A stretch of DNA of 64,000 bases from Escherichia coli. Its GTDB lineage: Bacteria > Pseudomonadota > Gammaproteobacteria > Enterobacterales > Enterobacteriaceae. This document shows positions 14,805 through 59,859 of this stretch, in pieces. The stretch lies in the NCBI RefSeq assembly GCF_046105845.1, contig NZ_CP151004.1; one strand, written 5' to 3'. Positions within the stretch are counted from its first letter, which is position 1. Each line of letters starts with the position of its first letter. The position numbers were made by a program, and so were the translations under genes. A model generated the notes under the pieces. That model searched no databases. It had not been told where the DNA came from and worked only from the letters and a program-made list of their open reading frames with translations.

Positions 14805-15832
14805 TGGGAAAGAGTAAGAAGAACCGCGCTGCGGCGACGAAACAGATCCAGCATAAAAACCAGACTTCAGCCGAAGCATTCAGCTTCGGTGATCCCGTTC
14901 CTGTTCTGGACCGCCGCGAACTGCTGGACTATGTGGAATGCGTACAGATGGACCGTTGGTATGAGCCACCAGTGAGTTTCGACGGCCTGGCGCGAACCTT
15001 CCGCGCCGCCGTACACCACAGCTCACCGATTGCAGTAAAGTGCAACATTCTGACCAGCACCTATATCCCTCACCCGTTGCTCAGCCAGCAGGCTTTTTCA
15101 CGTTTTGTGCAGGACTATCTGGTATTTGGTAATGCCTACCTGGAGAAACGCACGAACCGCTTCGGTGAAGTTATCGCCCTTGAACCTGCCCTGGCAAAAT
15201 ACACTCGACGCGGATTAGACCTGGATACCTACTGGTTTGTGCAATACGGTATGGCAACCCAGCCGTATCAGTTCACGAAAGGCAGCATCTTTCATCTGAT
15301 GGAACCGGATATTAATCAGGAGATCTACGGCCTGCCTGGCTATCTTTCTGCTATTCCATCCGCTCTGCTCAACGAGTCCGCCACGCTGTTCCGCCGGAAG
15401 TATTACATTAACGGCAGTCATGCAGGCTTCATCATGTACATGACCGATGCCGCGCAAAACCAGGAAGATGTGAACAACCTCCGCAACGCGATGAAAAGCG
15501 CCAAAGGTCCGGGCAATTTCCGCAACCTGTTTATGTACTCGCCTAACGGCAAAAAAGATGGCATTCAGATTATCCCGTTATCGGAAGTCGCGGCGAAGGA
15601 TGAGTTTTTGAATATCAAGAACGTGAGCCGGGACGACATGATGGCAGCACACCGTGTGCCGCCACAAATGATGGGGATTATGCCTAATAATGTTGGGGGA
15701 TTTGGGGATGTGGAGAAGGCGAGCTTGGTCTTTGTTCGTAATGAACTGATTCCTTTACAAAAAAGACTGATGGAAGTAAATGTCTGGCTCAATGAAGAAG
15801 TGATTGTATTCAATAGATACATTTTAGAGTAA
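14804..15832 (+). CDS. Q: Portal protein (P2 gpQ-like)
   Basis: 343-aa ORF; ATG at 14804 overlaps the P stop (TGATG); ORF track start 14801 is a TTG. Confidence 0.9.
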   Translation: MGKSKKNRAAATKQIQHKNQTSAEAFSFGDPVPVLDRRELLDYVECVQMDRWYEPPVSFDGLARTFRAAVHHSSPIAVKCNILTSTYIPHPLLSQQAFSRFVQDYLVFGNAYLEKRTNRFGEVIALEPALAKYTRRGLDLDTYWFVQYGMATQPYQFTKGSIFHLMEPDINQEIYGLPGYLSAIPSALLNESATLFRRKYYINGSHAGFIMYMTDAAQNQEDVNNLRNAMKSAKGPGNFRNLFMYSPNGKKDGIQIIPLSEVAAKDEFLNIKNVSRDDMMAAHRVPPQMMGIMPNNVGGFGDVEKASLVFVRNELIPLQKRLMEVNVWLNEEVIVFNRYILE

Positions 15833-15860
15833 AAAAATGGGCACCATGAGGTGCCCAAGT
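15831..15860. terminator. Hairpin terminator between the convergent portal and NTPase genes
   Basis: GGGCACC-atga-GGTGCCC stem-loop (15839-15856) flanked by an A7 run, which reads as a U-run for the minus-strand transcript. Confidence 0.5.
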
Positions 15861-15862
15861 TG

Positions 15863-17287
15863 TTACTTACGTGTTTCAACTATATTCAGCCCCTTATAAA
15901 GGCTTTGATGGATATATACAGAACCAGTATTTGGCAACATTAAATCAGCATCTTCACATCGGAATCTAGCCGTACCGGAATTGCCCAACCGGACACCAAT
16001 CACAGAAGCATTAAATAGAGTTTTCATCAATTCACGAGAAGTATAGCGCTTACAAAGGTCAGGCGCTTTCTCTTCAATCTTACTGATGAATTCTTCTGTA
16101 GAATTATATCTATGCTGCGTCTGACGTAAAGATTCCAATAGCTCACCAAAATGAGGGTAGAGCCTTTTGTATTCTTGTTTTAAGTCCTCAACTTTCCAAG
16201 CGCTGTACCGTTCTTCAGCTATTCTAATTATATCCTTTTTTATTTCAGAAGCATTAGCATCACAGCGTTTTTGGCATTCTTGCAAAAACTGAATAACTTC
16301 TCTTGGGCGCAAAAATGTGCGCTTCACCAAATAGTTAAACGGTGAAATACTCCCTCTCATTTCACCTTCCTCAAAAATATCATCTATAGTTATATTTTCC
16401 GGCAATCTGGCGTTCACCATATCTTTCAACAACTCTGGTGTCCAGATTATTTCTTCTTCAATTGCTCGGTGTTTATCTTTATCATCAAATTCCAGCCCTT
16501 GATAAATATCAGAGCGTAAAAATGTTACAATATGAATACCTTTGGCTCTAGTATCAGAATAACTATCATTAATATCTTTTGTTGCCTTCAACAAGCCAAT
16601 CAAAAGGCTTTTGGCATCATCCGATCCATCCCAAGAATCATCTAATCGATCAGTGGCAATTAGCACCCCAATATCTGTACAAATTTCTTTAAGCTCGTCA
16701 AGGATGATTTTTATTATTTGAGGTGTCAATGGTGCTTGCGAAGCATCCTTATTAAACCCCACAGCATATCCGAAAGCCTCAAAATTGAATGAACTTAATC
16801 CCGAGAGTAACTTCCTTGCAGTTCCCAAAGTAGTTGGCGATATACCACCATAGTTATCAGAAACAAATTTTTTAATTCTAGCAAGGGCCTCCCGAGGTCT
16901 TTTCTCTGAAAATTGCCTACCTGACCTAATAATTTCTGCCGCAGCCTCAACAGCTATTGCAAATTTCCAAGCATTACAATGTGCCTGTTCGGGTAACAAC
17001 CCTTGCTCTTGATATTGTTTTAATGCTCCCCAAGCATACTGGTCTGGGGTCATGACATTTACGATAACGTCCTGCCCATATTTTGCTCTTACCAACCTTG
17101 GGAGTTGGGTAAAGATGGATGATTTCCCAGCCCCCTTTCTTCCAAGAAAATGGGCACTATAGAAACTCAGAGCTTGCTCAACTTGAGGAGTATTGATGAA
17201 ATAATCAGCCAACCTTCTATCAGCTTCAGCATCGACAGTACCAAAGTTGAGTCCCTTAACTGTAAGGCCTAACGCATCTAACCGCAC
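15863..17287 (-). CDS. P-loop NTPase, divergent KAP-like (candidate anti-phage or accessory gene)
   Basis: 474-aa ORF with GTG start and AAGGA RBS; Walker A FLGRKGAGKSSIF; Walker B-like VLIATDRLDDSW; visibly AT-rich compared with flanking late genes; lies between the cos-like site and Q. Confidence 0.75.
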   Translation of the reverse strand: MRLDALGLTVKGLNFGTVDAEADRRLADYFINTPQVEQALSFYSAHFLGRKGAGKSSIFTQLPRLVRAKYGQDVIVNVMTPDQYAWGALKQYQEQGLLPEQAHCNAWKFAIAVEAAAEIIRSGRQFSEKRPREALARIKKFVSDNYGGISPTTLGTARKLLSGLSSFNFEAFGYAVGFNKDASQAPLTPQIIKIILDELKEICTDIGVLIATDRLDDSWDGSDDAKSLLIGLLKATKDINDSYSDTRAKGIHIVTFLRSDIYQGLEFDDKDKHRAIEEEIIWTPELLKDMVNARLPENITIDDIFEEGEMRGSISPFNYLVKRTFLRPREVIQFLQECQKRCDANASEIKKDIIRIAEERYSAWKVEDLKQEYKRLYPHFGELLESLRQTQHRYNSTEEFISKIEEKAPDLCKRYTSRELMKTLFNASVIGVRLGNSGTARFRCEDADLMLPNTGSVYIHQSLYKGLNIVETRK

Positions 17288-17374
17288 GATAATTCCTTAA
17301 TTGGTAAACTAAATTTGAACTTGATGCCAACAAAGATAATATCAATTTAATTAAAAAGAAAGCTGTTGCGCGCG

Positions 17375-17393
17375 CTCGTATCCCCGCCACGCC
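17375..17393 (-). other. cos-like cohesive-end site (P2/186 type)
   Basis: Minus-strand reading GGCGTGGCGGGGATACGAG; first 13 nt match my recollection of the 186 cos (GGCGTGGCGGGGAAAGCAT); flanked by repeated TTTCATGCA motifs. Confidence 0.5.
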
Positions 17394-17772
17394 TGCCCGC
17401 TTTATGCAGTGGTTTTCATGCACATGCATGACATGAGCAAAAGCCCGCCAGTTCTGGCGGATCTGAGCAAAGACGATCCTCAATCGATCATGCGATTTCA
17501 TGCAGCATAGTCATGCACTGTCAAAGAAGTAAAAATCCGTATCTGAATGGCCACTTGAAAAACGGATCATACGGGTTTACAAAGATGAATGTTCGCTGTG
17601 AACGGGAAGCGGAAGTTAACTTTCAGATAACATAATCCATATGCACGAGAACCTCTAAAATAGAATGGGACACCTAAGCGGGGTACTTACAACGATTCTT
17701 TCCATATTCACAGTTAACACTCTGTTTGGCGTATTTTTATTCAAATAGCAAACACCAATAAAAGGAGTTTCC

Positions 17773-18108
17773 ATGAACAATATTCCCCCTATACCACAGT
17801 TAGGAATTTATGTCTCAAAAATCGATCCCACCCTACGTATCACTGTAACCGATGTTGATATTGTTGATGGTGAGGATGATTCTCCTGATGATGAATTGTT
17901 TTATTTAGTCCACTGGATCGAGGGGGAAGATGAAAGTGATATGACAGCAATGGGATTTGAGCTAGACCCAGTAGAGTGGCAGGCTTTCGTTGAATCTGAG
18001 CAATTAGTGTTTGAGCGTGATCCGTACATGGATTCAATCCCCGAAAATTCAAACTTGGCAAAGATTCGGGATTTTCTCATGAAGACTAAACAGAATGATC
18101 ATTCGTAA
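17773..18108 (+). CDS. Small highly acidic hypothetical protein
   Basis: 111-aa ORF with strong AAGGAG RBS; Asp/Glu-rich (VDIVDGEDDSPDDELF, IEGEDESDM). Confidence 0.6.
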   Translation: MNNIPPIPQLGIYVSKIDPTLRITVTDVDIVDGEDDSPDDELFYLVHWIEGEDESDMTAMGFELDPVEWQAFVESEQLVFERDPYMDSIPENSNLAKIRDFLMKTKQNDHS

Positions 18109-18300
18109 GTGTAAGCATCCATCAGGAAAATGGTTTTGTAAGTGAATCATCAACTTTTAGAGAGTCTCAGACACTCCCACTTCTGCTTCTGACACAAAGC
18201 GGACGATCACTTATCAAAATAACCGCCCACCTTACGCCTTATTTCACTCATTGCCCAAACTAGCCCCCATCAGAATGAATCCTCCTGGGGGCAACATTTC

Positions 18301-18534
18301 TTAATGCAGCCAGCTGTCGTCCTCCCACACCTTCTGCATAATTTTCATCACTTGTTTTCTTTCTTCATCCAGTTGCAGTCCGGTTAGTTCCACACCGTTA
18401 GAGCTACCTTTGCGAATGCGAATTACCGTTTTGGGATACAGGGGGCGCAGATTGCGGTAAAGCTCGGATTCAAGGGCGTCCAGGGTAGACTGGCTAATCT
18501 TCTGCTCTTTATCGATCATTATTTCAATGCGCAT
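18301..18534 (-). CDS. DinI-family protein (186 Tum-like SOS antirepressor, C-terminal module)
   Basis: MRIEIMIDKEQKISQSTLDALESELYRNLRPLYP...KIMQKVWEDDSWLH aligns with the DinI fold; ORF track extends it to 18606 in the same frame. Confidence 0.7.
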   Translation of the reverse strand: MRIEIMIDKEQKISQSTLDALESELYRNLRPLYPKTVIRIRKGSSNGVELTGLQLDEERKQVMKIMQKVWEDDSWLH

Positions 18535-18544
18535 AAAAGTCACC

Positions 18545-18733
18545 TCAGCTGATGACATCCATTGAGCGGTTGTATTCGTGGCTTCTGATTTTTGCCATGA
18601 GTTCATCAGTCAATTCAGAAACCCACTGCAGAGCCAGCCCCTTCTCTTCATCACTACACTCACTAGCCGCTACAAGCTTAAGAAAAAAATCAATGCGCTG
18701 GAGCTTCAAAGACTCCAAAAAATAGTCCTGCAT
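18545..18733 (-). CDS. Small hypothetical protein, first gene of the LexA-boxed operon
   Basis: 62-aa ORF directly downstream of the LexA box, upstream of the DinI-like ORF, in a different frame. Confidence 0.5.
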   Translation of the reverse strand: MQDYFLESLKLQRIDFFLKLVAASECSDEEKGLALQWVSELTDELMAKIRSHEYNRSMDVIS

Positions 18734-18764
18734 CTTTCCTCCTATAACACCAAAACAATACTGT

Positions 18765-18780
18765 ACACATAACCACTGTT
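18765..18780. promoter_or_regulatory. LexA (SOS) box
   Basis: CTGTTTATATTTACAG, a perfect CTGT-N8-ACAG box about 30 bp upstream of the 18733 start. Confidence 0.6.
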
Positions 18781-18885
18781 TATATTTACAGTATATAATA
18801 ATCTTACTGATGTAAAACGTTTTTTTACGTTCATCGGCCTGATATGCCTGGTATTATTAAGAGCACGAATTGTTAACCCGCGTAA

Positions 18886-21300
18886 TTAATATAGGTTCCG
18901 CCACTTATCATCTTCCTTCAGACGCTGGTTCCGATAGAAGATACGCAGGCCTGCTCCTGACGGAATACTGCCGCCGCGAAGGAGCAAATCGACTTCTTTC
19001 TCGCTGCCATCAAATCCCCTGGACTTCAGTTCATAGACGAGCTGCTGTCGCTGATGGTCTGTAATTCGCTGTTTGTAGTCTTTACGCCGTTTCGGTTTCA
19101 CCTGGCGTAACCTTGCAGCCAGTTCCCGGCGCTCTTTTTTGCTCATACTGTGCAGGTAATCGTGCAACTCCTTGTCATTCATACGGGTAATATCCGTTCT
19201 GGAGTCCGCATCAGCTGATTTGTCTTTCCCTTGTTGGTTCAAATTTTCAGCAAGGGGACAGTTATTGCCACGAGTCCAAGGGGCGCAAGCGCCCTGGTCG
19301 GCTGCCGCCTCCTGAACGTCAACGACCTTACGAACCATTTTCCATTTCATTGCATGAGTGCAGATCTTGCCCTGTACAATGGGTGACCAGATGCCATAAA
19401 TACGAATACCGTGATCGCCATAAGCGGTCGGCTCTTCGTTAATTTCATAAGCTGTTCTGATAAGGTGATATTTGCGGGGAACCAGTACGCCGCCCTGCTT
19501 CATGATGTAGGTGGCAAAACAGCCAGCATCAGCGGCAGCCAGGATGGCATCAAGGCGCGGGTCATCCAGTACCGGCGCACCTGCTTTTTTGTCACCCTGT
19601 TGCCTTGCCGCCTGACCAGCCAGCAAGCGAAGTTCACGGTACGCCTGACGCCCCGGAATACCAAAGAAGCGGAACTGCTGAACACGATGCAGAGACGCCC
19701 AGGCATTAACGTATTCGGCGTTATCACGCAGGGATTTACCCGTTTCCTTGCTGATCTCGCCAGCCAGACCACGTCCGTCAATGTTCTTACTGATGTATTT
19801 CGCGATGTAGCTTGTCGGCGTTCCTTTGCGCGGGTTTATCAGCTCAGACTTAAAGCGTGGACCCGTGTTATTGCCCAGTTCCTCGCGGTCTTCACGGATG
19901 GCAAACTTACGCAACAATGCAGTAATGGCGCGGCGGTCTTTTTTGCGCATGAAACACATGAGATGCCAGTGCACAGTACCGTCATGGTGCGGCTCAGCCA
20001 CCCGCACGCCATACCAGCGCAACCCGGCTTTGTGCATAGCCTTACGAAATGCAGCAAACATGCCGACCAGATAATCGCTGCTTTGTCTTACCGTCGCATT
20101 TGTCCAGGTTGGGTTTGGTCTGCCGTTATTGAGCGTAGAATGGAAACGTGACGGACAGGTAATGGTGTAGAAAACGGCGCAGTCACCACGCATTTCCGCG
20201 ATAAGCTCCAGACCTTTAACACAGGCCATCATCTCATTGCGGCGGTGCGCCGGGTTGCTGCTGCTGGCGTTTACCACGTCTTCCATATCCAGCGTGTCGC
20301 CGTCTTCGTTCACCAGTTCATGAGAACGGAAAAACTCCAGCGACTTGCGGCGCTGCTCACGTTTATGCGTCACTGCTTCATAGCTGACATAGGGAGATGC
20401 TTTTTTGCTGACCAGGCAGACAGCACGCAACTGCTCTTCCCGCCATTCGCAACGTATCTTCCACAATTTTCGATACCACCAGTCGGCGCAAAGCATACGT
20501 GCCAGCGAACCCGGTATGAGTTCATAGGGCACGGGTTTGCGGCGGTTTCTTTTCCGACGGAGTTTCTCAAACGCAGGCGGGATAACATCCAGACGCAGGG
20601 TTTCCGCTGCCACCTTTTCCCATGTCTTGCGGATTTCTTCTGGCTTAACGTCATCGGTGGCATACAAATCACCACAAGCGGCCTCAAGACACATGCTCAT
20701 ATGCGCTGCTACCAAGGTGGACAGGCGTTTTACCTGATCCTGACTCATTTCAGGCAGGATCAGCAGGCCCTCAAGCCCTTGATGGCTTGCCATAAAACGG
20801 AAAGAAGCGGATAGCTGACTGTCGCGTACATACTCCAGTCGCTCCAGACATGACTTAATCGTCTCACGCAAATAGCGGGAATAAGCCTTTGGCCTGCCCA
20901 GGCTGCTGAAGTATTCGATACGTTGCATCAGCGGCTTGCTGATGTGGGTGGGCTGGGCGCTGACGTCCGCCAGAATGACCATGTCCGGGTTAAAACGCTG
21001 CTGCTCATGCGCCAGCTTTGCCCGACTAATGAGATTATCCTGCTCCATTTCGCGCTGGACAGGATCACGGGATTCATTAAAGAAATAACGCTCCCAGACC
21101 TGCTCACTCAGTGCATCGCGGCGCAGCTGTTCCTGCTCGTTATCGGCAGCGTACAGAGTGATCATGTTTGAAAGTGCAGACTCCGGCGCAACTTCCGCCG
21201 GGTCCAGATAAGGGTTAATGGCCTTTTTCGGGCCGTTCCATGAAAATGCTGCAGCGGCCTCGTTAAAGCCGCTAGAGTTGCTCATATCATCATGACTCAT
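18886..21300 (-). CDS. A: Replication initiation endonuclease (P2 gpA-like, rolling circle)
   Basis: 804-aa ORF, characteristic size and position. Confidence 0.85.
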
Positions 21301-22154
21301 ACACGCACCTCGTACACAGCAGAACTATCCACGCCACGCGAAGGATCAAATCCCACCCAGCAGCGCGCCCCGGAAACAGCAATGATTTCTGTTGCAGATT
21401 TACTCTCGCCAGCCGACACGCCGATGCTGCGTTTTGCCTTGATGTAGTGGTGAGTGAAATTGCGATACAGCGAACGAATCAGGGATGTGTCACTGTTAGA
21501 AACAATGACCGGATGACCTTCAGATGATCGATGTTCAAGAACGGATGCCAGGTGATACTGGTCATCCTCAGTGAAGCCATCAGTGTGATAGCCGGAAAAC
21601 GTACCGTCATAAGGCGGATCGCAATACACCACATCCCCCGCCTTCAACATCGCCAGCGTTTCATCAAAGCTGGCGCAGATAAACGTTGCTCGCTGGGCTT
21701 TTTCTGCAAATTTGCGAATTTCTTTTTCAGGGAAATACGGATTTTTATAATTCCCGTAGGGAATGTTGAAATGCCCGCTCTTGTTATAGCGACATAACCC
21801 ACGGTAACCATGACGATTGAGATACAGGAAATATACCGCTTTCATGAAATCAGTAATTTCAGTGGAGTAATTAAACTCCTGCCTTATGTTGTAATAAGCC
21901 ACCTCCCTGTTTGCTTCCTCAAATAAAGCTCTGGCACGAGATATAAACGCCTCGCAATCAGCAGCAACCTTTTTATAGAGGTTGATTAAATCAGGATTAA
22001 TATCCGCAACAAGATAGCTGGGGTAATCCGTCTCTATCATCACAGCACAAGAACCCGCGAAAGGTTCAACCAGTCGCGGGCCAGCAGGAAGGTATTTTTT
22101 CAGTTCTGGCATAATGGCGGTTTTATTACCCGCCCATTTCAGGATGGTGCTCAT
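21297..22154 (-). CDS. DNA adenine methyltransferase (Dam family)
   Basis: From internal start [11 protein letters not shown]...; motifs LVEPFAGS and DPPY; stop overlaps the A start. Confidence 0.85.
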
Positions 22155-22378
22155 ACAGCACCTCCGTTGTAATGTTTGCCTTTCAGCTCTGCGATTTCCT
22201 GACAGGTAATGCAAAGCTGCACACCCGGAATGGCGCGACGTCGTGCTGGCGGAATTGGTGCTTCACACTCAATGCAAAGCACGCGGGATACGCCCGGCGT
22301 TTTGGCGCGGGCAGCACGGATATGACGCTGGCGTTCTTCTTCAACGCGCTGCTGTACGAGATCCATTGCATCAGCCAT
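22151..22378 (-). CDS. DksA/TraR-type C4 zinc-finger protein
   Basis: 75 aa, CIECEAPIPPARRRAIPGVQLCITCQ. Confidence 0.7.
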   Translation of the reverse strand: MADAMDLVQQRVEEERQRHIRAARAKTPGVSRVLCIECEAPIPPARRRAIPGVQLCITCQEIAELKGKHYNGGAV

Positions 22379-23955: not shown

Positions 23956-24080
23956 GATGCAACATTCCTCGTTTAATGTTGATTAATCAGGACGAATACG
24001 GATCGTTTGTATTTTGTGAACATCATAAACATACGATCGCATAATGAAATCGTCAAGACAAAAGTTCACTTGGAGTGACC
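23956..24080. promoter_or_regulatory. Lysis-lysogeny switch region (face-to-face pR/pL type, inferred)
   Basis: ~120-bp AT-rich interval between divergent apl and cI with short repeats (ATACGGATCG / ATACGATCGC). Confidence 0.45.
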
Positions 24081-24650
24081 ATGAATTTGGAGAAAGGCGG
24101 ACGAGGCGCTATAGAGCGCATGGTAGAAGCATATGGCTTCAAGACTCGACAGGCGTTGTGCGATCACTTAGGAATCTCTAAAAGTACTCTCGCCACACGC
24201 TATATGCGTGACTCATTCCCTGCTGAATGGGTAATCCAGTGCGCACTTGAAACGGGCGCCTCGCTTAACTGGCTCACGACCGGACATGGTTCAAAGCAAA
24301 CTTCAGGTAATACAAATACTATGGAAGTCGTTAAATATGTATTATCTGATGGAACCTTGCAGGAAGATGGTTTTTATATTTTCGATAAAGAATTTCTACC
24401 ATCTACGCTCAAAAATCCGTTTGTAATCACCGATAACAATTCCGTTTTTATTTGCGATAAAGAGTTTAACGATATTCGTGACGGCAAATGGGTAATAAGT
24501 ATTGATGCCGAAGTAACAATCCGCGATATCACTCGTTTACCTGGTGGAAGAATCTTAGTTGAAGGTGGAAATAGGGCTTTCGAATGTAAAAAAGAAGAAA
24601 TCGAAATTATTGGAAAAATTATAAGCATAACAGTTAAGTACTTTGAGTAA
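24081..24650 (+). CDS. cI: Immunity repressor CI (186 type)
   Basis: ATG at 24081 after a GGAG RBS; ...IERMVEAYGFKTRQALCDHLGISKSTLATRYMRD..CALETGASLNWLTTG...ITRLPGG...FECK... Confidence 0.85.
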   Translation: MNLEKGGRGAIERMVEAYGFKTRQALCDHLGISKSTLATRYMRDSFPAEWVIQCALETGASLNWLTTGHGSKQTSGNTNTMEVVKYVLSDGTLQEDGFYIFDKEFLPSTLKNPFVITDNNSVFICDKEFNDIRDGKWVISIDAEVTIRDITRLPGGRILVEGGNRAFECKKEEIEIIGKIISITVKYFE

Positions 24651-24700: not shown

Positions 24701-25624
24701 ATGTCAACTCAAAAATTAAAATTTAGCCATATCAAAAACGATCTGAAAGCAATAGTTATGCAGAATCGTGGAGGGCAAAAAGTTATTGAGCGTATACTCC
24801 TAGCCTATGGCTTCAAGTCACGACAGGCATTATGTAATCATCTAGGTATTTCCCAAAGTACTATGGCCAACAGATATGCACGTAATACCTTTCCTGCAGA
24901 TTGGGTTGTTATATGTTCCATAGAAACAGGAGCATCAATTGAATGGTTAGTTCTTGGTTCAGATACTGCTCCTTCATCAGAGCAATATTCTGAAAAACAT
25001 GCCGTTAATGGCCTTTGCAATGAAGTATACATTCCCACTATAAAGTTCGATAATGAAAAACTCATGAATTTTAACCGAGGGGGTAAGGCAACAATAGAAC
25101 GAATTGTCGAGGCTTACGGTTACAAAACGCGCCAAGCATTAGCTGATCACCTAGGTATTTCAAAAAGCACATTAGCCACACGATACATGCGTGACATTTT
25201 TCCTGCAGACTGGGTTTTGCAGTGTGCAATAGAAACGGGCCATTCTATTGAATGGATTTCATTTGGTACAGGAGAAATGAAAAACACAAAAAATAAAGAT
25301 ACTTTAACATTAGTGAAAAAAGTATTAATCAATGGCAAGTTAATAAATGATGGCTCATATTTATTTGACCCATGCTTTCTACCTTCCAATTTAAAAAATG
25401 CATTCGTAGTATCTACCGAAGACTCTGAATTAATATGTGAAATGGGTTTTAAAGATGTACATGATGGTAAGTGGCTAGTAAATATTGATGGAGAGAATTC
25501 ATTTAGAATGATAACTCGACTACCTAAAGGACGAGTTTATATTTCATCCCAAAATCACTCTTTTGAATGTTCGCTTACAGACATTGAGTTTATTGCAAAA
25601 GTTATTATAAGTTGTTTACATTAA
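24701..25624 (+). CDS. CI paralogue with tandem duplicated N-terminal HTH domains plus a CI-like C-terminal domain
   Basis: 307 aa; residues ~22-90 and ~125-190 each resemble the CI N-domain (the second carries ISKSTLATRYMRD, identical to CI); C-terminal FECSLTDIEF region parallels the CI C-domain. Confidence 0.8.
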   Translation: MSTQKLKFSHIKNDLKAIVMQNRGGQKVIERILLAYGFKSRQALCNHLGISQSTMANRYARNTFPADWVVICSIETGASIEWLVLGSDTAPSSEQYSEKHAVNGLCNEVYIPTIKFDNEKLMNFNRGGKATIERIVEAYGYKTRQALADHLGISKSTLATRYMRDIFPADWVLQCAIETGHSIEWISFGTGEMKNTKNKDTLTLVKKVLINGKLINDGSYLFDPCFLPSNLKNAFVVSTEDSELICEMGFKDVHDGKWLVNIDGENSFRMITRLPKGRVYISSQNHSFECSLTDIEFIAKVIISCLH

Positions 25625-25649: not shown

Positions 25650-27167
25650 GTGAAATGTGGTGATTGTAATTGGAACTGGGATGAAGAAACTACCTTTATA
25701 TTAGACGACGAAGAGGAAATTCTTTCCAAAGACAAACTTAATCGGAGACACTATGCAGAATATCTATATTTTTATCTTAAGGAAAAGGGGCAAAAGAACA
25801 ACACGGTAATCAACCTTAATGCAGAATGGGGAGCTGGTAAAAGTTTTTTCATAAAGAGATTTTATAACTCAATAAAAGATGCACACCCATGCGTTTACAT
25901 TGATGCCTGGAAGCAAGACTTTTCTGATGATGCATTTTTAACCCTTTTTTCTTCTTTGTCACAACAATTGCAAACATATGCAGGAAAACTTGATGCTCGA
26001 TTGATACAAAGCGGCCATGCTATCGGACGCTTTACAAAAGGTGTTCTACCTGAAATCATATCTGGCCTAATCAAGACTTATGCAGGAGTAGATAACGTAG
26101 GTGATATAGCCAAAGAAGCCTCATTAATAATGCTGAAGGAACACCAGGAAAAACTGAAGAGCATTAAGGTATTAAAAAAAGAACTAACGTTATGGTCTAG
26201 GTTGGCATATGAAAATAGTTTTTCATGTCCTATATTTATCTTTATAGATGAATTAGACAGATGCAGGCCAGATTATGCAATTTCTCTTTTAGAGATTGTT
26301 AAACATATATTCGATATTAAAAATTTTGTCTTTATTATTGCTACTGACACAGATCAATTACAACATTCAATCAAGAATGTTTACGGTAATGATTTTTCCG
26401 CAAATGACTATTTAGGCCGTTTTTTTCATAGAAGATTTACTTTAAAACAACCTGAACTTAAAGATTTAATTAATGGTGTTATTGGTGATTATATTGGTAC
26501 CGATTTTGAAAATATCACATCAAAAACATACCCACTAACAGCAACATTAGAAGACTTTTCAATAAATATTTCCAACGTATTTGAAGCATTTGGGTTAAAT
26601 CTAAGAGACTCAATCCGAAATACTGAAAGGTTAATAGACATTCTTAAATCTGATTTAGTCAAAAAGAAAGTAGATTATATTTTTATAATTTCGCTAATGA
26701 TTATATATGATAAGGATCGTCAAATTATAGATGGACTAATTGGTCGAAGAAATGCAGCACAACGTTTCACTGATTCGATAAAGCAAAGCTCCAATTTAAA
26801 AGGTGTTTCTCAAGCCATCCTTGAATTAAATCTTGATACAAATCAGCAAAGAATAGGTGTCAATTATATCTATAGAACGGCGAGCAGTAGATTATTCATC
26901 TCACAGATCGAGCCCAAAATAAATTTAACATTAATAAATTACTTAGATGTTGCATTGTATTTTATTAATAATATAAACATGCTTAAATCAAGTATAAAAA
27001 ACAATGGGCAAAATTCACTAATGATTATATCTCAACAAGGCCCTATTGATGGTGATACAGCTATAAAGTATTTGCAAGGAGCCCTTATAGAGAATGGTCT
27101 GAATACATCTTTTTATGCCTTACATAATTACATTGAATTAATTGAACTGGCCACATCATTTGATTAA
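25650..27167 (+). CDS. KAP-family P-loop NTPase
   Basis: 505 aa, GTG start with GGAGA RBS; NLNAEWGAGKSFF (Walker A), IDAWKQDFSDDAFLTLF, IFIFIDELDRCRPDYAISLLEIVKHIF (Walker B), all hallmark KAP motifs; AT-rich. Confidence 0.85.
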   Translation: MKCGDCNWNWDEETTFILDDEEEILSKDKLNRRHYAEYLYFYLKEKGQKNNTVINLNAEWGAGKSFFIKRFYNSIKDAHPCVYIDAWKQDFSDDAFLTLFSSLSQQLQTYAGKLDARLIQSGHAIGRFTKGVLPEIISGLIKTYAGVDNVGDIAKEASLIMLKEHQEKLKSIKVLKKELTLWSRLAYENSFSCPIFIFIDELDRCRPDYAISLLEIVKHIFDIKNFVFIIATDTDQLQHSIKNVYGNDFSANDYLGRFFHRRFTLKQPELKDLINGVIGDYIGTDFENITSKTYPLTATLEDFSINISNVFEAFGLNLRDSIRNTERLIDILKSDLVKKKVDYIFIISLMIIYDKDRQIIDGLIGRRNAAQRFTDSIKQSSNLKGVSQAILELNLDTNQQRIGVNYIYRTASSRLFISQIEPKINLTLINYLDVALYFINNINMLKSSIKNNGQNSLMIISQQGPIDGDTAIKYLQGALIENGLNTSFYALHNYIELIELATSFD

Positions 27168-27253: not shown

Positions 27254-28306
27254 ATGGCAGTACGAAAACTCACCACAGGAAAATGGCTTTGCGAATGTTA
27301 CCCCGCCGGACGTAGTGGGCGTCGTGTGCGTAAACAATTCGCCACCAAAGGCGAAGCACTGGCTTTTGAGCGTCACACGATGGAAGAAACCGAAGCAAAG
27401 CCCTGGCTGGGTGAATCAGTGGATCGTCGAACACTGAAAGACGTGGTTGAGCTATGGTTCAAACTACATGGTAAATCTCTGACTGCTGGGCAGCATGTCT
27501 ATGACAAATTGCTGCTGATGGTTGACGCTCTGGGCAATCCCCTTGCAACTGATCTAACCTCTAAAATGTTTGCCCACTATCGAGATAAACGCCTGACAGG
27601 TGAGATCTACTTCAGTGAGAAATGGAAGAAAGGAGCAAGCCCGGTCACCATTAACCTGGAGCAAAGCTATCTAAGTAGTGTTTTTAGCGAACTATCCCGC
27701 CTGGGCGAATGGTCGTATCCGAACCCACTGGAGAACATGCGAAAATTCACCATCGCAGAAAAAGAGATGGCATGGCTTACCCATGAGCAGATTGTTGAAT
27801 TACTAGCTGATTGCAAACGTCAGGACCCAATTCTGGCACTGGTAGTTAAGATATGCTTAAGCACAGGCGCACGCTGGCGAGAAGCCGTAAATCTTACCCG
27901 CTCACAGGTGACCAAATACCGAATTACCTTTGTAAGAACGAAGGGGAAGAAAAACAGAAGCATCCCTATCAGTAAAGAGCTTTACGAAGAGATCATGGCG
28001 CTTGATGGGTTCAATTTCTTCACAGACTGCTATTTTCAATTTTTATCCGTGATGGAAAAAACGTCTATCGTGCTCCCTCGCGGTCAACTCACACACGTTC
28101 TGCGCCATACGTTTGCGGCGCACTTCATGATGTCGGGTGGAAACATTCTGGCTTTACAAAAAATTCTCGGACACCACGATATAAAAATGACTATGCGTTA
28201 CGCACATCTGGCACCGGATCATCTGGAAACGGCGCTCCGTTTCAATCCTCTGGCAACGCTGCCAAGTGGCGACAAAGTGGCGGCAGCGGTTGGCATTACC
28301 CCGTAA
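27254..28306 (+). CDS. int: Tyrosine integrase (P2/186 Int family)
   Basis: 350 aa; C-terminal catalytic region ...HVLRHTFAAHFMMSGGNILALQKILGHHDIKMTMRYAHL. Confidence 0.9.
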   Translation: MAVRKLTTGKWLCECYPAGRSGRRVRKQFATKGEALAFERHTMEETEAKPWLGESVDRRTLKDVVELWFKLHGKSLTAGQHVYDKLLLMVDALGNPLATDLTSKMFAHYRDKRLTGEIYFSEKWKKGASPVTINLEQSYLSSVFSELSRLGEWSYPNPLENMRKFTIAEKEMAWLTHEQIVELLADCKRQDPILALVVKICLSTGARWREAVNLTRSQVTKYRITFVRTKGKKNRSIPISKELYEEIMALDGFNFFTDCYFQFLSVMEKTSIVLPRGQLTHVLRHTFAAHFMMSGGNILALQKILGHHDIKMTMRYAHLAPDHLETALRFNPLATLPSGDKVAAAVGITP

Positions 28307-38718: not shown

Positions 38719-39547
38719 GACGATGCCCTCCGCTGATATTCAGGAGACGGTGAATATGAAAATTAGCCTTATCCGCCAGACGAATACGTTCAGCCTGCAA
38801 GTTAAGAAGGGTTTCTACCAAAACCTGATGCGCCTGCGGATCCGAAAGAGTTACCTTGCGCAGAGCACGTAGTGCAGTTGTTACATAACTGAGTTTATGT
38901 AAGTCTTCATCATTCAGACGAGTGAGGGCTGGGACAGTAGCCATGATGGCAGCCTCCGATAACAGTGAATTACCTTCACCACCGGAAACGCCAATTTCGC
39001 TGGTGGTGAACTGAACGGGGTTGGCGTAACCGGCGTTATCGGAAACCGGCGCACCTTTCGGTGCCCCCGTCCAGCCCACCATAATTTGGGTGTGCACAGA
39101 CACAGACGATAAAAAAGACGCTGGCGCGTCATATATCGCCGATAACATTTCCAGGACGCCAATCCCGTCACCCGCTTTATAAGGTGCCTGAACAGTGTAA
39201 CGTCCCGGAATGGCAGAATCAATGTGCTGGTGGTCCTTCACACTCAACAAAATCACGCCTGAATTTCCACAAAGGACTAAAGCACTCATGCGGGTAGTCT
39301 TTGCGAAGATAGATAACGCGCTGTGTTTCTGGTTCCCAACGAATAACATGGACATAAAGCCCTCTTCCGTCACGAAACCAGCGGTTAAGTTCCCGCACAA
39401 CTCGCCCCCCACAGTCAGGTAAAGTTCTCTGTGGTTACTTACAGCCAGGTGATTTGGTAATCTGCATTCATGCCGTAACAACAGGTGTTCAGCGACACTG
39501 ACCACCAGCTGTTGCGACAAACGGTTATTTGCCGTTAAACTGTTCAT
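38711..39547 (-). CDS. Hypothetical phage early protein
   Basis: 278-aa ORF in the cro-proximal early-right operon. Confidence 0.5.
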   Translation of the reverse strand: MNSLTANNRLSQQLVVSVAEHLLLRHECRLPNHLAVSNHRELYLTVGGELCGNLTAGFVTEEGFMSMLFVGNQKHSALSIFAKTTRMSALVLCGNSGVILLSVKDHQHIDSAIPGRYTVQAPYKAGDGIGVLEMLSAIYDAPASFLSSVSVHTQIMVGWTGAPKGAPVSDNAGYANPVQFTTSEIGVSGGEGNSLLSEAAIMATVPALTRLNDEDLHKLSYVTTALRALRKVTLSDPQAHQVLVETLLNLQAERIRLADKANFHIHRLLNISGGHRHA

Positions 39548-57567: not shown

Positions 57568-59859
57568 TTGTCAGAACTACTCTCTTTCGCCCTTTTTCTC
57601 GCCTCTGTGCTGATTTACGCATGGAAAGCGGGACGTAACACCTGGTGGTTTGCAGCCACATTAACGGTACTGGGGCTATTTGTCGTTTTAAATATCACCC
57701 TGTTTGCCAGCGACTATTTTACTGGCGATGGTATTAACGACGCGGTTCTCTATACCTTAACCAACAGCCTGACCGGTGCTGGTGTCAGCAAATACATTCT
57801 TCCGGGTATCGGCATTGTGCTGGGGCTGACGGCGGTGTTCGGTGCGCTGGGCTGGATCCTGCGCCGTCGTCGCCATCATCCGCACCATTTTGGTTACAGC
57901 CTGCTGGCACTATTACTGGCGCTGGGTTCAGTGGATGCCAGCCCGGCATTTCGTCAGATAACGGAACTGGTGAAATCCCAGTCACGCGACGGCGACCCGG
58001 ACTTTGCGGCTTATTATAAAGAGCCGTCGAAAACTATCCCTGACCCGAAACTCAACCTGGTTTATATCTACGGCGAAAGTCTCGAGCGAACCTATTTTGA
58101 TAACGAGGCTTTCCCGGATCTCACGCCTGAACTGGGCGCGTTGAAAAATGAAGGCCTGGATTTCAGCCACACGCAGCAGCTGCCAGGAACGGATTACACG
58201 ATTGCGGGCATGGTGGCTTCTCAGTGCGGAATACCGCTGTTTGCCCCATTTGAAGGCAACGCCTCCGCTTCTGTTTCCAGCTTCTTCCCGCAGAACATCT
58301 GTCTGGGCGATATCCTGAAAAACTCGGGTTATCAGAACTATTTCGTGCAGGGCGCGAATCTGCGTTTTGCCGGTAAAGATGTGTTCCTGAAGTCGCATGG
58401 CTTCGACCACTTATATGGCTCAGAAGAGCTGAAAAGCGTGGTGGCCGACCCGCACTATCGCAACGACTGGGGATTCTACGACGATACCGTTCTCGACGAA
58501 GCGTGGAAAAAGTTTGAAGAGCTTTCCCGCTCAGGTCAGCGATTCTCACTGTTTACCCTGACAGTCGATACCCATCACCCGGATGGTTTTATCTCGCGCA
58601 CCTGTAACCGCAAAAAATATGATTTTGACGGTAAGCCTAATCAGTCATTCAGCGCGGTAAGTTGCAGCCAGGAGAACATCGCGACGTTTATCAACAAAAT
58701 CAAAGCGTCACCGTGGTTTAAAGATACCGTCATCGTCGTCTCTTCTGACCATTTAGCGATGAACAACACGGCGTGGAAATACCTCAATAAGCAGGATCGC
58801 AATAACCTGTTTTTTGTCATCCGTGGCGACAAGCCGCAGCAAGAGACGCTGGCAGTGAAGCGTAATACGATGGATAACGGCGCGACGGTGCTGGACATTC
58901 TCGGTGGCGATAACTATCTCGGACTTGGTCGTAGCAGTTTATCCGGGCAGTCAATGTCGGAAATCTTCCTCAATATCAAAGAGAAAACATTGGCGTGGAA
59001 GCCGGATATCATCCGCCTGTGGAAATTCCCTAAAGAGATGAAAGAGTTCACCATCGACCAGCAGAAAAACATGATTGCCTTCTCGGGTAGCCATTTCCGT
59101 TTGCCGCTGCTGTTGCGGGTTTCAGACAAGCGCGTAGAACCGCTGCCGGAAAGCGAATACTCAGCACCGCTGCGTTTCCAGCTGGCCGATTTCGCTCCAC
59201 GCGACAATTTCGTCTGGGTTGACCGTTGCTACAAGATGGCACAACTTTGGGCTCCGGAACTGGCACTCTCCACCGACTGGTGTGTCTCGCAAGGGCAGCT
59301 TGGCGGTCAGCAAATTGTCCAGCATGTTGATAAAACAATGTGGAAGGGCAAAACGGCATTTAAAGATACGGTCATCGACATGGCGCGTTACAAAGGCAAT
59401 GTCGATACGCTGAAGATTGTTGATAACGATATTCGCTACAAAGCCGACAGTTTCATCTTTAACGTCGCCGGTGCGCCAGAAGAGGTGAAACAGTTTAGCG
59501 GAATTTCCCGTCCGGAGTCGTGGGGCCGCTGGTCCAACGCTCAGCTGGGCGATGAAGTAAAAATCGAGTACAAGCATCCGCTGCCGAAGAAATTTGACCT
59601 GGTGATTACCGCCAAAGCATACGGCAATAACGCCAGCCGTCCTATTCCGGTACGCGTAGGCAATGAAGAACAAACCCTTGTGCTGGGCAATGAAGTGACC
59701 ACCACCACACTGCATTTCGATAACCCAACCGATGCAGGCACACTGGTAATTGTGCCGCCGGAACCTGTCTCAACCAACGAAGGGAATATCCTCGGACACT
59801 CGCCGCGTAAGCTCGGGATCGGCATGGTGGAAATTAAAGTGGTAGAACGTGAAGGGTAA
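57568..59859 (+). CDS. opgB: Phosphoglycerol transferase I (OPG biosynthesis)
   Basis: 763 aa, N-terminal transmembrane helices plus sulfatase-like domain. Confidence 0.9.

Follow-up and report, generated by a model that had tools for sequence, protein, structure and literature searches.

Does the Tum-like module of this prophage consist of two genes, or of one gene that has been broken? We analysed a window of 64,000 nt of Escherichia coli DNA in which a 62-aa ORF (ORF1) and a DinI-like ORF (ORF2) follow a LexA box in different reading frames. An earlier note on this DNA had described tum of phage 186 as a single LexA-controlled polypeptide and, for the split, had offered two separate proteins, a frameshift or a sequencing error. 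This description was accurate: tum of 186 forms a single ORF of 146 aa whose C-terminal half is DinI-like, and a LexA site is annotated at its promoter p95. In the window, we give a probability of about 85% to the module being the SOS operon of 186 in a two-gene (tumA-tumB) form, within a Fels-2-like E. coli prophage of the P2 family. The features of the operon are as follows.

18263..18292, minus strand: candidate terminator hairpin for the operon (GCCCCCA...TGGGGGC), 9 nt downstream of the tumB stop codon; confidence is low
18301..18534, minus strand: tumB (ORF2), DinI-like gene, 77 aa, with its own SD sequence GAGGTG 6 nt upstream of the ATG
18545..18733, minus strand: tumA-like gene (ORF1), whose 62-aa product is a predicted small anti-repressor acting on the prophage CI; the SD sequence GGAGGA lies upstream
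18774..18793, no strand assigned: LexA operator, the 20-mer TACTGTAAATATAAACAGTG on the minus strand, with its core CTGT-N8-ACAG at 18776-18791
18788..18793, minus strand: putative -10 hexamer TACTGT, the left half of the LexA box, by analogy with annotated 186 p95
18811..18816, minus strand: putative -35 hexamer TTTACA of a p95-like SOS promoter, read from the sequence and by analogy with 186 p95
18886..21300, minus strand: P2 gpA-type replication endonuclease gene (an ORF, annotated in relatives), immediately upstream of the operon

The LexA operator and the two products

A perfect LexA box (CTGTTTATATTTACAG) had been reported at 18765-18780. The box is present but its core lies 11 nt away, at 18776-18791, and the end of the region described in the earlier note (18780) falls inside it. 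As a loose pattern, CTGT-N8-ACAG turns up 3 times in the window where 0.82 would be expected, an excess that by itself lacks significance. Employing the 20-nt consensus TACTGTATATATATACAGTA with up to 3 mismatches, we found a single match in the 64-kb window, at 18774-18793, and none in 100 shuffles. The pattern also occurs at 39429-39444 and 58549-58564 (CTGTGGTTACTTACAG and CTGTTTACCCTGACAG); neither site is within 3 mismatches of the consensus, and both are therefore probably chance occurrences. A canonical LexA box was found 36-66 nt 5' of the tumA start in 8 of 8 phage lineages, even without alignable flanks. Among 80 IMG/VR loci, which are those recovered with TumA (98-100% identical), the box is perfect in 75 and differs by one base in 4 more.

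We placed the window promoter by analogy with annotated 186 p95, in which the -35 is TTCACA and the -10, TACTGT, is the first six bases of the LexA site. The geometry is that of the window, where the putative -35 TTTACA lies 17 nt upstream of TACTGT; TTTACA is kept in 75 of the 80 related loci. A generic sigma-70 promoter scan called no promoter at the tumA-tumB operon, because TACTGT fits TATAAT at just 3 of 6 positions.

Both ORFs were recovered on the minus strand exactly as the earlier note gave them: the 62-aa ORF at 18545-18733, and the DinI-like ORF at 18301-18534 with an in-frame ATG at 18606 from which a 101-aa product overlapping ORF1 could be read. Against Pfam PF06183 (DinI), ORF2 scored 81.3 bits (cut-off 24.2; 6.6e-23), and its assignment to the DinI family by sequence is solid. 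It is 100% identical to the DinI-family protein of Fels-2, 78% to PsP3 TumB and 30% to E. coli DinI, and it begins MRIEIMIDK, with the MRIE start of cellular DinI. With the chromosomal DinI equivalog model, NCBIfam NF007893, it reached 42.7 bits against a cut-off of 111; therefore ORF2 is a phage DinI paralogue and not the orthologue of host dinI. The tumB frame is open for 25 codons upstream, including the ATG at 18606. The 101-aa form starting there was ruled out, the extension varying in length and sequence among relatives and the DinI/TumB homologues starting with MRI.

The earlier note had proposed alignment to 186 tum and orf97 as a check. ORF2 matched the C-terminal half of 186 Tum (41% identity by BLASTP to residues 71-145, E 3e-24; 42% identity to the C-terminal 76 residues). 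ORF1 could be connected to Tum by profiles only. No orf97 homologue was found downstream of tumB in the window.

Searched against PHROG profiles, ORF1 hit phrog_698 (5.9e-38), phrog_8554 (1.1e-8) and phrog_1993 (0.002), and the first 70 residues of 186 Tum hit phrog_1993 (1.5e-23), phrog_8554 (3.4e-12) and phrog_698 (5.9e-6). PsP3 TumA belongs to phrog_1993. Because ORF1 had no match to 186 Tum in pairwise BLASTP and is ~20% identical to it in a multiple alignment, its homology to Tum residues 1-70 holds at the profile level only. By this measure, ORF1 is a remote homologue of the N-terminal anti-repressor half of 186 Tum.

ORF1 is 97% identical to STM2728 of Fels-2. Searches of Pfam, NCBIfam and PDB sequences gave no match to it, and a structure search found no solved structure for the Tum N-terminal half or TumA. 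RefSeq lists it as the 62-aa hypothetical protein WP_001154431.1, and E. coli 100181 and BL21(DE3) both have it at the matching site. Many database entries for the protein are 84-106 aa long rather than 62. The tumA reading frame is open upstream, through the LexA box and the promoter (window 18734-18835), so the longer entries look N-terminally over-extended.

ORF1 might instead be an unrelated small SOS protein or a leader, with induction coming from elsewhere, for example from a trans-acting anti-repressor of another prophage. Such anti-repressors are documented in Salmonella (PMC3121763), the cognate CI is very unlike that of Fels-2, and ORF1 has neither pairwise similarity to 186 Tum nor a Pfam, NCBIfam or PDB family. 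We nevertheless consider this unlikely, since the profiles link ORF1 to both the 186 Tum N-terminal half and PsP3 TumA, its position, LexA control and size class match tumA in 8 lineages, and ESSI-2-like and Yersinia phages have a tumA-like gene alone behind a LexA box. With ORF2 matching the C-terminal half of 186 Tum and ORF1 a profile-level relative of the N-terminal half, the earlier reading of the locus as a LexA-controlled anti-repressor operon was supported. The window has what marks a tumA-tumB operon of the PsP3/Fels-2 type, namely cistrons of ~60 and ~77 aa, the sequences of both proteins and a LexA operator after gene A.

On homology only, the tumA-tumB operon would be the SOS switch of the window prophage. 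In the lysogen, host LexA on 18774-18793 would occlude the -10 hexamer and keep both genes silent. Upon DNA damage RecA would become active, LexA would cleave itself and the promoter would fire. The 62-aa TumA would then bind the non-cleavable 186-type CI (24075-24650) and block its binding to the operators, so that the lytic promoter would be derepressed and the prophage induced. Shearwin et al. 1998, whose work PMC3121763 and PMC7708051 summarise, reported that 186 Tum binds CI and prevents its operator binding. The 77-aa TumB, co-transcribed and independently translated, may bind RecA filaments as DinI does and tune the SOS signal; the 186 record describes truncated DinI-like Tum products as modulators of SOS induction. 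The sequence features, with their homologies and conservation, are observed directly; that LexA binds the operator, that TumA acts on CI and what TumB does are inferred from 186, PsP3 and Fels-2.

The operon may end at the GC-rich hairpin 18292..18263, as at t95a in 186, a partial terminator at the equivalent position. The hairpin has a predicted energy of -22.6 kcal/mol in a 66-nt context, a z-score of just -1.68 and a weak T-tract, and a terminator scan did not call it.

The junction between tumA and tumB

ORF2 starts 199 nt after the start of ORF1 and so reads in the +1 frame; 10 nt separate it from the ORF1 stop. The junction consists of the stop, a 10-nt spacer with GAGGTG and the ATG, and it is the same in Fels-2 and in 80 of 80 IMG/VR loci, all of which have tumB equally spaced, across a TGAGGTGACTTTTATG-type junction. 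Among complete E. coli genomes, the tumA-tumB module was present in 1082 of 5426 (about a fifth; module coverage of at least 80%, mostly 95-99% identity), including BL21(DE3). PGAP calls two intact genes, WP_001154431.1 and WP_001217575.1, in BL21(DE3) as well.

Among the relatives, tumB is placed at +1, +2 or 0 relative to tumA, each time with its own ribosome-binding site. In the window and Fels-2 the offset is +1 and the gap 10 nt, in SopEPhi and Klebsiella phi4.1 they are +2 and 11 nt, and in PsP3 they are 0 and 3 nt; in 186 tumB is fused to the tumA part. The in-frame extension upstream of tumB is 25, 14 or 1 codons long across the lineages and also differs in sequence. In ESSI2_ev015 and Yersinia vB_YenM_06.16-2, tumA occurs alone, without tumB, and is annotated in one of the two as 'tum protein'.

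Employing a TumA profile, we searched 1.84 billion representative proteins and obtained 176 TumA-like clusters. Almost all of the best 150 are stand-alone proteins of 44-100 aa, and only 2 (146 and 157 aa) are fused to DinI. The fused 186 Tum is therefore the exception, and the two-cistron split is the normal, majority state of the tumA-tumB family. What the earlier note had regarded as a possible anomaly is thus the ordinary layout, annotated as such in PsP3 and Fels-2. Of the options it had left, two separate proteins proved right, given the conserved junction, the variable frame offsets and the stand-alone majority of TumA; conservation in IMG/VR and complete genomes, together with the frame offsets of the relatives, excluded a frameshift and a sequencing error. 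No DinI domain shares a polypeptide with ORF1, since a stop codon and a shift to the +1 frame lie between the modules. As judged from its sequence, the window module is predicted to function like Tum, yet it is a non-fused Tum.

The two products could be accompanied by a third. Programmed +1 ribosomal frameshifting at an A5 run (18593..18589) would yield an extra, ~140-aa fused Tum-like protein: a +1 slip at GCA AAA ATC joins TumA residues 1-48 to the open extension of the tumB frame, and in 186 several Tum products come from one ORF. The A5 run is found in 79 of 80 close relatives, but these loci are 98-100% identical, which makes its conservation uninformative. SopEPhi and Klebsiella phi4.1, with an offset of +2, have just 14 open codons and an unrelated extension peptide, and PsP3, with an offset of 0, has a stop codon between the genes. 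Because offsets, extension length and extension sequence differ among the relatives, there is no conserved frameshift mechanism or product. No stimulatory structure was found either, the junction hairpin having a z-score of -0.94 and being missing in SopEPhi. Taken together, we consider programmed frameshifting highly improbable. The same hairpin (GTCATCAGCTGAGGTGAC, 18556..18539), which includes the ORF1 stop and the ORF2 SD sequence, was also rejected as a means of translational coupling, since it does not go beyond shuffled sequences.

There is next to no chance that the two ORFs are a pseudogene or an artefact left by a frameshift mutation, or by an indel from sequencing or assembly, in a fused 186-like tum, even though 186 has both halves in one ORF and the halves lie here in different frames with an overlapping in-frame extension, for the same junction recurs in 80 of 80 independent IMG/VR loci, Fels-2 and more than 1000 complete E. 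coli genomes, tumB starts with MRIE exactly like cellular DinI, relatives with 85-90% identical TumA have another frame offset and spacer, and TumA is mostly a stand-alone protein among the best 150 of 176 clusters.

Reading the locus as an intact tumA-tumB operon has a value for annotation: ~20% of complete E. coli genomes, BL21(DE3) among them, have WP_001154431.1 beside a 'DinI-like family protein'; it is the product of the predicted tumA-type anti-repressor gene of Fels-2-like prophages, and its locus should not be flagged as a broken tum.

The CI repressor and the prophage neighbourhood

The predicted target of TumA and the other genes considered here are the following.

15863-17287, minus strand, shared with the tum operon: 474-aa P-loop ATPase of the Sll1717 family (NCBIfam 2.5e-84)
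17773-18108, opposite strand to the tum operon: very acidic 111-aa ORF (phrog_17127, unknown function)
24075..24650, plus strand: cI, 191 aa, 186-type immunity repressor and predicted TumA target (Pfam and PDB matches)
25650-27167, plus strand: KAP-family P-loop NTPase (PADLOC candidate defence PDC-S20, 9.3e-78)
27254-28306, plus strand: int, after the KAP-family NTPase

Both domains of a 186-type repressor were found in the window CI (Pfam Phage_CI_repr, 3e-33; Phage_CI_C, 7.3e-27), which also matched the 186 CI structure 2fjr (3.6e-31). It is 31% identical to 186 CI and 39% to Fels-2 CI. Because the CI proteins are 39% but the TumA proteins 97% identical between the window and Fels-2, the pairing of TumA with the window CI is assumed. 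We compared the window with 67 IMG/VR loci; all share its TumA (98-100% identical) and have a single-HTH CI. Identities (minimum/median/maximum unless stated) within these loci, and to 186, ESSI-2 and Yersinia phages, were as follows.

CI N-terminal domain: 53/74/100% within the loci; 38-52% to 186, ESSI-2 and Yersinia
CI C-terminal domain: 23/35/100% within; 24-44% to the same three
Apl: 17/72/100% within; 18-47% to the same three
CII: 85/96/100% within; 43-72% to the same three
gpA: median 97% within; 19-38% to the same three

For the CI N-terminal domain, identity within the group was always above the values for the outgroup, that is, phages with other TumA types, whereas the CI C-terminal domain and Apl diverged as much within the group as from the outgroup. 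The N-terminal domain is flanked on both sides by hypervariable segments. Apl sits between cI and tumA and is far more variable, which weakens plain linkage as the cause of the retention of the CI N-terminal domain. This retention is a correlation, and it is compatible with recognition of the DNA-binding domain by TumA. It is possible, although we hold it to be rather doubtful, that a near-invariant TumA serves many immunity types by recognising a surface that is kept in the DNA-binding domain of CI, and that, as an anti-repressor for the whole lineage, it could cross-induce heteroimmune Fels-2-like prophages residing in one cell. The pattern of one TumA facing many CI proteins could reveal which CI domain is recognised by Tum-type anti-repressors.

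The window has tandem CI-type repressor genes: cI (24075-24650, plus strand) is followed after 50 nt by the gene of a 307-aa paralogue (24701-25624, plus strand) with two Phage_CI_repr HTH domains and Phage_CI_C. A double-HTH CI is normally the sole repressor, as in PsP3 and 10 of the 80 IMG/VR loci; single- and double-HTH CI occur together in 1 of the 80 loci and in 16 of 5426 E. coli genomes. Possible roles of the paralogue are a second immunity, regulation of the NTPase or modification of Tum induction. If TumA does recognise the CI DNA-binding domain, the paralogue could modulate or escape induction by TumA. In 186 and Fels-2, unlike in the window, cI abuts int.

A DNA adenine methylase-like gene (21297-22214, minus strand) runs into the start of gene A, an arrangement also found in Fels-2 and SopEPhi ('retron EC67 Dam-like'). 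A variable cargo slot (window 15863-18108) separates tumB from the portal gene. The Sll1717-family ATPase encoded there shows a weak similarity to an 'anti-phage protein' model and had no PADLOC match. In BL21(DE3) the acidic 111-aa ORF is kept beside tumB, and a St85-family retron replaces the ATPase. For window 15500-19000, the sole E. coli match over the whole stretch was NZ_JBRERE010000002.1 (99.0%), labelled as the 150-kb plasmid pE100181_149; 8 of 1161 placements of the tum module are on plasmid records. Either a plasmid carries a P2-like prophage here or the contig is mislabelled.

Comparison with known systems

The tumA-tumB layout is already known, being published or annotated for PsP3 and Fels-2, and the split itself brings no new biology. 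Lemire et al. 2011 (PMC3121763) noted that 186 Tum resembles an anti-repressor fused to DinI and, citing Bunny, Liu and Roth 2002, that tum is split in two in Fels-2 and PSP3; a passage of PMC3121763 also cites a personal communication according to which the upstream gene of PSP3 has anti-repressor activity. Tum is not mentioned in PMC3448106.

The module of Fels-2, a prophage of Salmonella LT2, is 96.7% identical to that of the window at the DNA level, and STM2728 and STM2726.1 are the same two ORFs. The LexA box sequence, the site after gene A and the +1 frame junction are all as in the window. The two prophages differ in CI, which is 39% identical overall (~69% in the N-terminal and ~28% in the C-terminal domain), and downstream of tumB, where Fels-2 has STM2726 and the window has the acidic 111-aa ORF and the Sll1717-family ATPase. 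STM2726 of Fels-2 (L001:3160-3891) and orf97 of 186 (L002:4105-4836) both encode 243 aa and both come after the tum genes. BLASTP found no similarity between them; therefore, these phages do not have a conserved third gene in their SOS operons.

PsP3 likewise has a two-cistron SOS operon behind a LexA box, with a tumA of 60 aa and a tumB of 77 aa. In its record the two genes are described, respectively, as 'similar to 5' end 186 tum; UV induction of prophage' and 'similar to dinI and 3' end of 186 tum'. The TumB proteins of PsP3 and the window are 78% identical, whereas the TumA proteins are only ~20% identical, that of PsP3 falling into PHROG 1993 and that of the window into 698. The two genes of PsP3 are in one frame, separated by a stop codon and 3 nt, and its CI is a 286-aa double-HTH protein.

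Phage 186 shares with the window a LexA operator over a TACTGT -10 after gene A, the anti-repressor and DinI-like modules and a 186-type CI. It differs in having a single 146-aa Tum with internal starts, one of which gives the DinI-like part alone, whereas the window has separate cistrons.

The dinI-gfoA/gftA operons of Gifsy-1, -2 and -3 (Salmonella) can be likened to the window in layout. These are lambdoid phages with dinI in the first position, the reverse of the order in the window; their LexA-controlled genes nevertheless pair a DinI homologue with a small anti-repressor that acts against a non-cleavable repressor (PMC3121763).
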